A stretch of DNA of 64,000 nucleotides. Source: an uncultured Chloroflexia bacterium (GTDB lineage Bacteria; Chloroflexota; Limnocylindria; Limnocylindrales; CSP1-4). The stretch spans positions 4,559 through 68,558 of the forward strand of contig CAWHCW010000019.1 of NCBI GenBank assembly GCA_963827965.1, given 5' to 3'. The notes below the pieces were generated by a model. That model did not search any database. It was not told the origin of the DNA and saw nothing but the letters and a program-made list of their open reading frames with translations. This document shows, in pieces, positions 11,380 to 13,426 of this stretch (its first letter is position 1; every line of letters begins with the position of its first letter). Both the position numbers and the translations under genes were made by a program.

Positions 11380-11718
11380 GTGACACCCGAGGACTTCTTC
11401 CGGGACGATGCCTCGGCCTCTCGCTCTTCGAGAAGGTCCTGGCCGTTCTGTCTGACCACGGCCGGGTCGAGGTTCGCACCTCGAAGGGCCAGGTCGCCTT
11501 CCGGCGACGGCGCGGCTCGCGTACCTGTGGCTGCCGGACATGTATCTGGGCGACCGTGCGGCCGGGATCGTCGTCCTGTCGTTCGCGCTCGGCCGTGTGA
11601 GATACCGAGGTTCAAGCAGGTCACCAAGGTCGCGCCGGCACACTGGATGCACCACCTGAGATCCGCGATCCGTCTGCGATCGACGAGCAGGTTGTTGCTG
11701 GCTTCACGAGGCCGCTGA
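11380..11718 (+). pseudogene. DUF5655-like protein broken by several frameshifts (pseudogene or assembly errors)
   Basis: Fragments MTPEDFF / VEVRTSKGQVAFRRRRG / FKQVTKVAPAHWMHHL in different frames. Confidence 0.55.
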
Positions 11719-11796
11719 TCGCGCCGGCTGACCTGCAGCCCGCCAGCCGAGGAGGGCCAGCGACTCGAGCCTGATCGGTCGAAGGCGTACGGGAGA

Positions 11797-11872
11797 TGGC
11801 GCGCCCGGCGGGACTCGAACCCACGACCTCCAGGTCCGCAACCTGACGCTCTATCCACTGAGCTACGGGCGC
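11797..11872 (-). tRNA. tRNA-Arg(GCG)
   Basis: GCGCCCGTAGCTCAGTGGATAGAGCG-TCAGG-TTGCGGA-CCTGG-AGGTCGTGGGTTCGAGTCCCGCCGGGCGCGCCA; anticodon GCG at 11837-11839. Confidence 0.95.
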
Positions 11873-11880
11873 ACGAGAGG

Positions 11881-11972
11881 TGGCGGAGAGGGAGGGATTC
11901 GAACCCTCGAGGCAGGTTACCCCACCTGGCGGTTTAGCAAACCGCTGCACTAGGCCTCTATGCGACCTCTCC
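11881..11972 (-). tRNA. tRNA-Ser(GCT)
   Basis: Anticodon arm GCGGT-TTGCTAA-ACCGC, long variable arm, encoded CCA; upstream TGgTAGAAT. Confidence 0.96.
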
Positions 11973-12116
11973 GGGCCACGGCGCGGCGCATTCTACCAGA
12001 GAGCGCCCTCCCGGCCGTCGGCGGAAGCCGTGGATCGGGCGCGGCGCGGCGGGTACGGCGGGCACGGCAGCGTGCGGCGCGACGGCGTCGCGGCCGACGT
12101 ACCGGCGCGACGCGCT

Positions 12117-12146
12117 TTGACACCGGGGGGCGCGCCCGGCTATGGT
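12117..12146 (+). promoter_or_regulatory. Sigma70-type promoter of the aro operon
   Basis: TTGACA (12117-12122), 18 nt spacer, TATGGT (12141-12146). Confidence 0.75.
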
Positions 12147-12155
12147 GGCCCGACC

Positions 12156-12194
12156 GTGAGAACGCGCTCCTTCTACTTTCCGAGCCCGGCATGA
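12156..12194 (+). CDS. Putative attenuator leader peptide MRTRSFYFPSPA
   Basis: GTG AGA ACG CGC TCC TTC TAC TTT CCG AGC CCG GCA TGA; Phe-Tyr-Phe codons placed between the promoter and a terminator, upstream of aroF. Confidence 0.75.
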   Translation: MRTRSFYFPSPA

Positions 12195-12239
12195 CCCACC
12201 CCGGAGCCTGAGCTCCGGACGGCGGTCGTGCCGGGTGTG

Positions 12240-12274
12240 AGCAGAGGCCGCAGGACCTCTGCTTTTTTGTTTGT
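12240..12274 (+). terminator. Intrinsic terminator in the aro leader
   Basis: GCAGAGG-ccgcagga-CCTCTGC followed by TTTTTTGTTTGT. Confidence 0.85.
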
Positions 12275-12351
12275 CCGGCGGAGGACGATGGCCGGGACCC
12301 GGGGAGGGTCCCGGGAGCCGCGAAGGCGGCCGGGATGCGAGGCGAGGCCAG

Positions 12352-13426
12352 ATGTTCGTGGTGATGGCGGTCGAGGCGACCGAGGAGCAGCTGAACGCGG
12401 TGCGGGGCGCCATCCTCGAGGAGGGCCTGACGCCCCACGAGAACCGCGGCGGGGCGCGGATCGTCGTCGCCGTCCTCGGCGAGGGCGGCGGCCTGGGCCG
12501 AGCGCCTCGCCGACCGGCTCTCGGTGCCTCCCCGGCGTCGGCCGTCGGTCACGCCAGACGAGCCGGCCCTTCAAGCTCACCTCGCCGCGAGTTCCACCCC
12601 GAGGACACGGTCGTCCACGTCGGCGACGTCGACGATCGGCGACGGGTCGCCTGACCCTGGCCGCCGGGCCCTGCGCGATCGAGTCGCGCGACCAGCTCTT
12701 CGAGACCGCCGAGGCCGTCAAGGCCGCCGGCGCCAACGTCCTGCGCGGCGGCGCCTTCAAGCCGCGGACCAGCCCGTACTCCTTCCAGGGGCTCGGGCTC
12801 CAGGGGCTCCGCTTCCTGGCCGAGGCGCGCGAGCGGACCGGCCTGCCGGTCGTCACCGAGGTGATGGAGCCGGGCCAGGTCGAGCACGTCGCCGAGTACG
12901 CCGACATCCTCCAGATCGGCGCCCGCAACATGCAGAACTACTCGCTCCTCATGGCCGTCGGGCGAGATCGGGCGGCCCGTGCTCCTCAAGCGCGGCCTCT
13001 CGGGCACGATCGAGGAGTGGCTGATGGCCGCCGAGTACGTCATGTCGAGCGGCAACCCCAACGTGATCCTCTGCGAGCGCGGCATCCGGACGTTCGAGAC
13101 GGCCTACCGGAACACGCTCGACGTGACGGCCGTGCCGCTGATCCACCAGCTGACCCACCTGCCCGGTCTGGATCGACCCGTCGCACGCGACCGGGAAGCG
13201 CTGGCTCGTCACGCCGCTCGCCCTCGCGCGGAACGGCCGTCGGCGCCGACGGCCTGCTCATCGAGGTCCACCCGCGCCCGACGAGGCGCTCTCCGACGGC
13301 GACCAGTCGCTGACCCCCGCCCAGTTCGGCGAGCTCGCCGATCGCGGTCCGCGGCGTCCACGACCAGGTCCGCGCCATCCACGCCACGCCGCGGGCCGGC
13401 GATGGCCGCCGACGCCGCGCGCCTGA
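12352..13426 (+). CDS. aroF: DAHP synthase type I-beta with an N-terminal regulatory domain (frameshifted; end approximate)
   Basis: [50 protein letters not shown]. Confidence 0.92.

Follow-up and report, generated by a model that had tools for sequence, protein, structure and literature searches.

How could a whole biosynthetic pathway be controlled from the few bases in front of its first gene? The question is raised by a locus in an uncultured Chloroflexota bacterium of the class Limnocylindria (contig CAWHCW010000019.1 of assembly GCA_963827965.1, positions 4,559 to 68,558). This stretch of 64,000 nucleotides, which we call the window at its full length and to which all coordinates refer, carries a series of shikimate genes that starts with aroF. 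The original prediction, made from the letters of the sequence, had placed a leader-peptide attenuator of the pheL/trpL type directly upstream of aroF (12117-12351), with Phe and Tyr as the amino acids that it senses. Our follow-up indicates that the element is most probably an aromatic leader-peptide attenuator. We consider it likely that it is, more precisely, a ribosome-mediated transcription attenuator of the shikimate/chorismate operon, which reads charged tRNA-Phe and tRNA-Tyr, and in relatives also tRNA-Trp. Gene callers and Rfam both miss it, and it offers a concrete and testable regulatory element for a whole biosynthetic pathway in uncultured soil and freshwater Chloroflexota. The coordinates of its parts are collected in Table 1.

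The comparison rests on 75 genomes, which represent 14 genera of the window's family, the sister family and, by one weak hit, a third family; the loci L034, L036, L038, L039, L042 and L043 were removed as genome repeats. All 75 have a promoter with a TTGACN -35 box and a -10 box that carries A at position 2 and T at position 6. In the window the promoter TTGACA-N18-TATGGT is present as predicted and is the sole promoter-like site between 11500 and 13000 (0 in 50 shuffles), and the same scan found no second promoter in the spacer 12274-12351. The GTG of the leader open reading frame, ORF1, begins only 9 nt past the -10 hexamer, so that the 5' untranslated part is a few bases at most and there is no room for a Shine-Dalgarno (SD) sequence; the mRNA would be leaderless or nearly so. 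ORF1 is found in all 75 genomes with 8-13 codons (11 or 12 codons in 71 of them), and the differences in length between lineages are multiples of 3 nt. Its start codon (49 ATG, 26 GTG) lies 6-14 nt after the -10 box, and its stop codon is TGA in 71 genomes and TAG in 4. The SD-less frame of 12 codons with TTC TAC TTT was thus read correctly in the original prediction, and both the small ORF and its aromatic codons are conserved upstream of aroF in the relatives.

It is the codon content of these small frames that points to their function. Codons for Phe, Tyr and Trp (F/Y/W) make up 246 of the 789 leader codons (31%), compared to 4.6% in 40 AroF ORFs from the same loci, and the other two frames of the leader DNA hold only 10% and 3%. 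At least three aromatic residues are encoded in 62 of the 75 leader peptides, and a single one in one peptide. The choice of Phe codon is also different from that of the genes downstream, with a TTT:TTC ratio of 71:77 in the leaders (TTT 48%) against 10:334 in the aroF genes (3%). Number and identity of the aromatic residues vary by lineage and the enrichment stays; examples are FYF, FFF, YFDF, FFYF, FFFYRY, FFFFYRY, YRYF, WFYF, FYWF, YWY, FYWY, WYF, YFWY and FFFFY.Y, and the leader of the weak hit in the third family encodes WYY. UGG codons for Trp occur ten times across the 75 leaders, for instance in MTRFYWFTDPA and MNARYWYPSPA. The Trp codons and the additional Tyr codons argue that the identity of the codons is selected, and not merely a pyrimidine-rich RNA. 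That the leader senses Phe and Tyr is therefore only part of the matter: the F/Y codons are conserved as expected, but the relatives add Trp codons, and the sensor would seem to be one for aromatic amino acids in general. In one genome (locus L014, genome G008) the leader ORF ends directly after FYF, and the C-terminal Pro-Ser-Pro-Ala thus matters as RNA and not as peptide.

The RNA that follows the control codons is predicted to form a long rod, made up of stem A and the enclosed hairpin B, and then a terminator. The RNA of 12150-12275 folds at -62 kcal/mol (z = -4.5), and none of 200 shuffles folds as well. The control codons end 4 nt before stem A, and the stop codon of ORF1 sits in its 5' strand. 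Both structures that had been proposed for the window, a hairpin that covers the ORF stop and encloses CCGGAGC/GCTCCGG, and a GCAGAGG/CCTCTGC terminator with a T-run before aroF, were recovered. The terminator hairpin begins two bases past stem A in the window, and the linker from the conserved GGG of stem A to the GCAG of the terminator, read by eye in the sequences of the relatives, measures 3-8 nt.

Compensatory changes are found in the relatives for three stems. Changes on both sides occur in 7 of the 14 pairs of stem A and in all 7 pairs of hairpin B, and in the terminator the top pairs and the closing pair covary around a core of 7 bp that is nearly invariant. Counted over the structure, 19 of 32 pairs have both-side changes, against 10.8 ± 1.5 in shuffles, of which 0 of 500 reach 19, and 91% of the cells pair, against 34-47% with the partners slid; the 75-genome alignment behind these numbers was fitted to the model, includes three reverse-strand rows and is drawn from kin, and the numbers therefore lean towards structure. 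The statistics were computed on 33 genomes first and then on 75. Hairpin B varies, as do the inner part of stem A and the terminator top. The outer part of stem A, in which CCCGGCAUGA pairs with CGUGCCGGG, is nearly invariant across 14 genera and two families, and so is the terminator core. Segments that resemble stem A were noticed by eye further downstream too. Past the terminator, many relatives (L013-L020, L030-L033) repeat the 5' strand of stem A (CCCGGCACGG), and this repeat could pair with the 3' strand. In the subgroup of the window, the bases just ahead of aroF (GCCGGGAUGCGAGGCGAGGCC) look like the 3' strand of stem A joined to the terminator 5' arm (GCCGGGUGUGAGCAGAGGCC). The repeated segments in 12274-12351 may be left over from a duplication or may add a second level of control.

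The most peculiar feature lies within the rod itself. A second mini-ORF, ORF2, starts with an ATG that overlaps the stop codon of ORF1 and ends in the apical loop of hairpin B. An ATG is found at this position in 66 of the 75 genomes, and in 60 of those the frame has exactly six codons and ends with TAG (33), TGA (21) or TAA (6). Whatever the start codon, a stop in the frame of ORF2 is present in or at the apical loop in 71 of the 75 genomes, and none of these 71 has a sense codon at the place of the stop; variants of ORF2 with five and seven codons keep the frame. The loops are 3-12 bases long and differ in sequence, and 71 of the 72 stop codons found in them share the ORF2 frame. The apical loop is the only place where a stop codon costs no base pair. 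We think that the loop stop reflects selection to halt ribosomes at the apex of the rod, and that it is specific for one frame is indirect evidence that ribosomes travel through the leader RNA. Ribosomes at the apex may have restarted at the overlapping AUG, or slipped into the frame on the Phe codons. The CAUGA motif is invariant because stop, start and pairing fall on the same bases. In L014, the locus with the short leader peptide, CAUGA is short of one base and the second frame has no stop in the loop, which is either a real variant or an assembly error. To our knowledge, an overlapping second mini-ORF with its stop codon in a hairpin loop has not been described elsewhere.

A mechanism can be outlined from these parts. 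Transcription would start at, or a few bases from, the start codon of ORF1. If aromatic aminoacyl-tRNAs are plentiful, the ribosome would pass the control codons and move into the 5' strand of the rod, where the stop codon sits, and would then probably restart at the overlapping AUG and stop again at the apex; with the rod held open the terminator would form, and transcription would end before aroF. If the tRNAs are scarce, the ribosome would wait on the Phe, Tyr or Trp codons, the rod just ahead of it would stay intact, and the RNA polymerase would presumably read through. In the model the geometry is that of a classical attenuator, since a ribosome that reaches the ORF1 stop would mask the 5' strand of stem A and melt the rod, and a stalled one would leave the strand free and the rod intact. 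A ribosome that goes on to the ORF2 stop would mask still more, with the 5' strand of hairpin B included. The codons only decide whether the rod is melted, and the operon is biosynthetic, and it follows that the intact rod should favour read-through and the melted rod termination. In RNA that is not translated, the pyrimidine-rich control codons could additionally pair with the terminator 5' arm. From the sequence we infer that the leader controls the whole operon, and that it responds to Phe or Tyr.

How an intact rod would prevent termination is a more difficult question. Our best guess is that a rigid rod, 3-8 nt from the terminator and with a ribosome at its base, would hinder the hairpin from being completed in the exit channel of the polymerase. 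The rod could thus block the terminator sterically together with the stalled ribosome, or it could act on the polymerase. An attenuator without an overlapping antiterminator, where the folding of a rigid rod of 25 bp beside the terminator decides on termination, is a possibility that we regard as rather doubtful. The CAUGA would there send the unstalled ribosome through the second ORF of six codons, so that it unzips the rod and halts before the terminator. If true, this would be a new wiring of a leader peptide to a terminator, with a rare case of termination and reinitiation within a switch. If the simple reading is right, the element is an ordinary attenuator in a new lineage.

Several results weigh against the attenuator as we read it, and most of them concern the antiterminator. 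In our model the ribosome masks all RNA on the 5' side of a point 13 nt beyond the first base of its P-site codon, and for the 75 leaders in four states we counted whether the core of the terminator 5' arm is paired to an upstream segment while the 3' arm is still to be made. Such a partner is available in 63 of the 75 genomes in ribosome-free RNA and in 23 with the ribosome at the stop codon, but in none with the ribosome at the first aromatic codon and in one with the ribosome at the last, which means that secondary-structure prediction found no antiterminator that would exclude the terminator during the stall. The terminator is part of the minimum-energy fold in 74 of 75 ribosome-free leaders and in 75 of 75 in each of the three ribosome states; fold models of this kind cover secondary structure only and are blind to tertiary or steric effects. 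An all-against-all scan of column pairs in the 75-genome alignment gave no further convincing helix. Folding of the alternative structures, which had been proposed as the way to the antiterminator, did in other words not yield a conserved one, and the claim of a pheL/trpL-type attenuator stands on its parts, its conservation and its geometry but not on this pairing. Stem A shares no bases with the terminator, and we know of no precedent for a steric role of a rod. The genomes are moreover kin, and the counts overstate their independence.

The sole frequent competitor of the terminator, helix P1, does not remove the difficulty. It uses the control codons as one strand and the terminator 5' arm as the other, extends the rod, and is predicted for ribosome-free RNA in which the terminator 3' arm is still to be made. 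A stalled ribosome would mask the control-codon strand, and on its own P1 has the wrong sign. It has no both-side covariation. The duplex between ORF and arm has a mean of -8.2 kcal/mol, and over 69 distinct pairs it is no better than with shuffled ORFs, whether nucleotides (mean z +0.3) or codons (mean z -0.08) are shuffled. Judged by the model, P1 would still form physically on naked RNA, and its specificity is that of a candidate. Another pairing, between the hairpin B 3' arm and the terminator arm with the ribosome at the stop codon, was rejected; it is available in the fold of the window, not in 5 other genomes, and overall in 23 of the 75, and it also has the wrong sign.

If P1 nevertheless is a real antiterminator, leaders that are untranslated or vacated would read through, and any ribosome on the ORF would cause termination. 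The supply of aromatic amino acids would then have to act indirectly, for example by the drop-off of ribosomes with short peptides at hungry codons while the polymerase is paused at the rod, or by fewer initiations on a leaderless mRNA during starvation. Apart from P1, no alternative pairing of the terminator 5' arm recurs. In P1 94.6% of the cells pair, against 52-68% with the partners slid, and it would explain why the terminator arms are nearly invariant, as the 5' arm would have two partners to match, the codon tract and the 3' arm. At face value it would, however, turn the operon off when aromatic tRNAs are scarce, which is the wrong sign for a biosynthetic operon, and UGG codons inside the tract weaken it in several genera; together with a duplex that shuffled ORFs equal and the missing covariation, this leads us to consider it unlikely. 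The control-codon tract could instead act on translation, if it pairs with the ribosome-binding site of aroF when vacated and a stalled ribosome frees the site, with the terminator left to set a basal level only. Folded at minimum energy, the full leader of the window does pair its ORF tract with the GAGG region before aroF, and the available text of a study of mycobacterial poly-Cys ORFs gives a precedent for sensor codons as one strand of an inhibitory duplex (bioRxiv 10.1101/834739). A "translational regulatory leader peptide" is also the term used for aroR of Corynebacterium glutamicum in a passage of PMC7356990. The pairing is inconsistent among the relatives, though, with at least 4 bases of the SD region paired to the ORF in 38 of the 75 minimum-energy folds, and a modelled stall barely opens the region (a mean of 7.4 of 13 bases paired, against 8.1). 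Translational control would also leave the conserved and rare terminator, and the rod, unexplained, and we hold it to be very unlikely.

The remaining alternative is that the short ORF is incidental and that the element is a structured cis-regulatory RNA, riboswitch-like or protein-binding, with the CCCGGCAUGA/CGUGCCGGG stem as its binding site. In 14 genera and two families the sequence of the terminator core and of outer stem A is kept almost without change, to a degree that pairing by itself does not call for, and the rod keeps about 77% identity at the DNA level even where the aroF coding sequence barely aligns. But no Rfam family matches at E values up to 10, or at the gathering score in 20 related loci, and start and stop codons, indels that preserve the frame and a loop stop in one specific frame are not expected of an RNA that is not translated. 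The same is true of an aromatic enrichment of at least six-fold, with changing codons that include UGG and with the otherwise rare TTT, and we give this explanation hardly any chance. TRAP-like GAG/UAG repeats, T-box features and a coding continuation from the GUG of stem A were considered too, and were dropped on inspection by eye. The most likely explanation of the leader is still the ribosome-mediated attenuator.

The element is always single-copy, with one locus per genome, and always lies upstream of aroF. When 12100-12700 was compared with the relatives by BLAST, all 24 genomes of the genus proved to have the leader, and its core (12170-12272), at about 77% identity and upstream of aroF, was present in 10 of 16 members of the sister family, whose genomes measure about 1.1 Mb. 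A covariance model built from 33 sequences and run over 150 further genomes of the class found it in 41 of 44 genomes of the family (13 genera) and in 5 of 6 of the sister family, and in three other families of the class in 2 of 50, 0 of 49 and 0 of 1. One of the two hits among the 50 belongs to an unpublished genome (G131), which was left out of the 75-genome set.

Terminators of this kind are rare in the assembly of the window, which has 2.99 Mb and a G+C content of 73.4% and holds 81 runs of at least five T or A. By the criteria used there are nine hairpin-plus-T-run terminators in the whole assembly, one of them that of the aro leader. Only once in the 2.99 Mb, at the aro leader, do a TTGAC promoter, a start codon 5-12 nt past the -10 box, an ORF of 5-30 codons and a terminator come together, and the genome-wide scans of this assembly for other leader attenuators returned nothing else. 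The other eight hairpin-plus-T-run sites include those in G000 contig C10 near 56196 and 221080 on the minus strand and in contig C7 near 255859. Two of the eight lie shortly upstream of apparent gene starts, one of them after a TATACT box; these could be further attenuators or riboswitch terminators. A strict search in four relatives, which had no validation by a positive control, found no terminator-like hairpin upstream of trpE-like or pheA-like genes. A gene for a chorismate-binding, TrpE-like protein lies about 14-16 kb from the aro leader in three relatives (G007:C2:351781, G001:C1:966345, G059:C5:1319305), and the same unvalidated search gave no terminator-like leader upstream of it.

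Rfam returned two tRNAs and otherwise chance hits for 11500-12900 at E values up to 10. The two rows within 12100-12352 were at chance level (E 2.1 and 9.1) and far below the gathering score, and 20 related loci gave tRNAs only when searched at the gathering score. Public RNA data contain 12 runs with small shares of the stretch, of which four (X1, X2, X4 and X5) were examined for contigs of at least 90% likeness. These contigs come from relatives and lie mostly over conserved parts of aroF. One contig of 159 nt from X2 spans 12213-12363 with 11 differences; such contigs give no starts, ends or levels.

The aroF product is a DAHP synthase (Pfam DAHP_synth_1) whose catalytic domain is preceded by about 90 additional N-terminal residues. 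In the original prediction the operon was read as aroF-A-E-C-KB-Q-CM-gluQ, and Pfam recognises the following genes: DAHP synthase, EPSP synthase, shikimate dehydrogenase, chorismate synthase, shikimate kinase, dehydroquinase II and chorismate mutase, followed by a fragment of a GluQ-type tRNA synthetase (class I catalytic domain). The "B" of "KB" is unconfirmed, because the Pfam search of the downstream ORFs listed no match to the dehydroquinate synthase (aroB) family. In this assembly aroF and several of the downstream aro genes are split across frames (12352-13400, and on to about 19200). One relative has an intact AroF of 353 aa, and contigs from the RNA runs of relatives are without single bases at 12584/5, 12631/2, 12650/1, 12965 and 13162; the splits are probably single-base assembly errors and the genes not pseudogenes. 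Two divergent tRNA genes adjoin the leader, and the same pair is found next to it in other genera (L044, L059, L096).

Table 1. Parts of the aro leader and its surroundings, in coordinates of the window.
Feature	Position	Strand	Remark
tRNA-Arg(GCG) and tRNA-Ser(GCU), divergent	11797-11972	-	
Sigma-70-type promoter, TTGACA (12117-12122)-N18-TATGGT (12141-12146)	12117-12146	+	sequence reading
Leader ORF1, GTG start, 12 codons MRTRSFYFPSPA, TGA stop 12192-12194	12156-12194	+	sequence reading
Helix P1, control-codon pyrimidine tract (CUUCU-A-CUU) with terminator 5' arm 12239-12241 and 12243-12247	12170-12178	+	predicted
Control codons TTC TAC TTT (Phe-Tyr-Phe)	12171-12179	+	sequence reading
Rod, stem A (12184-12197 with 12222-12236) enclosing hairpin B	12184-12236	+	predicted fold
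Mini-ORF2, 6 codons MTHPGA, ATG overlapping the ORF1 stop (CATGA), TGA 12209-12211 in the loop of hairpin B	12191-12211	+	
Hairpin B, CCGGAGC with GCUCCGG, loop 12208-12211	12201-12207 with 12212-12218	+	predicted fold
Intrinsic terminator, stem 12239-12264 (core GCAGAGG/CCUCUGC), T-run 12263-12268, then GTTTG	12239-12273	+	
Spacer from terminator to aroF, SD-like GAGG at 12344-12347	12274-12351	+	varies between lineages
aroF start codon ATG (MFVVM...)	12352-12354	+	ATGTTCGT conserved in relatives

The kind of regulator is already known, and only the lineage and the layout are new. The original prediction knew of no description of such an element in this kind of organism. This is right in so far as our search of the literature on Chloroflexi leader-peptide attenuation and DAHP synthase leaders gave nothing on the lineage among the matches listed, which is not proof of absence, but the type is known from aroR of C. 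glutamicum, likewise with Phe-Tyr-Phe. According to the parts of PMC11802643 and PMC4046766 that deal with it, aroR lies upstream of aroF (cg1129) and encodes a leader peptide with Phe-Tyr-Phe; it was predicted in PMC4046766 and used for strain engineering in PMC7356990, and passages of all three credit the original to Neshat et al. 2014. In an excerpt of the review PMC11802643 transcription is said to rise under Phe limitation, with Tyr without effect. The aro leader of the window is like aroR in that a short leader ORF with Phe-Tyr-Phe stands directly upstream of the DAHP synthase operon, and unlike it in its host, which belongs to a different phylum, the Chloroflexota; the two are likened by published description. 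We take cg1129 to be a DAHP synthase of a different subtype. Other leader peptides of C. glutamicum are reportedly without a ribosome-binding site, as the title of a work by Morbach from 2000 has it.

Leader ORFs with aromatic codons in front of DAHP synthase genes are widespread. We scanned the 400 nt upstream of aroF loci of the same enzyme type from many phyla for an ORF of 6-35 codons with at least 4 F/Y/W in 8 codons, leaving out three of the 80 loci (L096-L175) that were too short. Such an aromatic-rich short ORF with a terminator-like hairpin behind it is present in 17 of the 77 loci, compared with none of 77 in either of two controls, the opposite strand and a coding window. Limnocylindria account for three of the 17, and the rest are Acidobacteriota (for example MFFTYAGWFSFRFWRFTPSG and MFGTDASSFWYFTYRYWGFAPSR), Bacillota including Clostridia (MKLNGFYFYGYYFFEPIS), Desulfobacterota (W.WWW) and a Brachyspira. 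None of the leaders found matches Rfam. Two of them, from an acidobacterium (L137) and a clostridium (L135), were read base by base, and in both the stop codon is followed by a segment that imitates the 3' arm of the terminator and is able to pair with the 5' arm. Their layout looks classical, whereas the Limnocylindria element has no such segment after the stop.

Other published leaders resemble it in single respects. The uORFC-13-1 motif of Acholeplasma, in the portion of PMC8632094 that presents it, likewise lies upstream of aroF and consists of an upstream ORF (uORF) that contains Phe codons and is followed by a terminator. The accessible parts of the 2005 survey of Actinobacteria report no RNA elements for Phe or Tyr genes (PMC1262725). 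In the mycobacterial leaderless poly-Cys short ORFs, as the available text describes them, the sensor codons are one strand of a long and stable duplex (bioRxiv 10.1101/834739). They share with the aro leader a leaderless short ORF as first cistron, sensor codons that lie in a duplex and a fold that is decided by the occupancy of the ribosome. Their partner strand is, in contrast, the downstream SD sequence, and the control is translational and without a terminator, whereas in the aro leader the terminator is conserved and the pairing with the SD sequence inconsistent.

The classical leader-peptide attenuators are those of E. coli. Like trpL, pheL and hisL, the aro leader has control codons for an end product in a short ORF, an intrinsic terminator before the first gene, a rare control codon, and a stop codon at which a terminating ribosome sits on the 5' strand of the hairpin that follows. 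Unlike them it is in the window without an SD sequence, and it has only three core control codons, which across the lineage are mixed among three amino acids. The hairpin that depends on the ribosome shares no bases with the terminator, and a second, overlapping mini-ORF ends in the loop of that hairpin. A switch with no overlapping antiterminator, and with the stop codon of a mini-ORF held in a loop, raises a clear mechanistic question.

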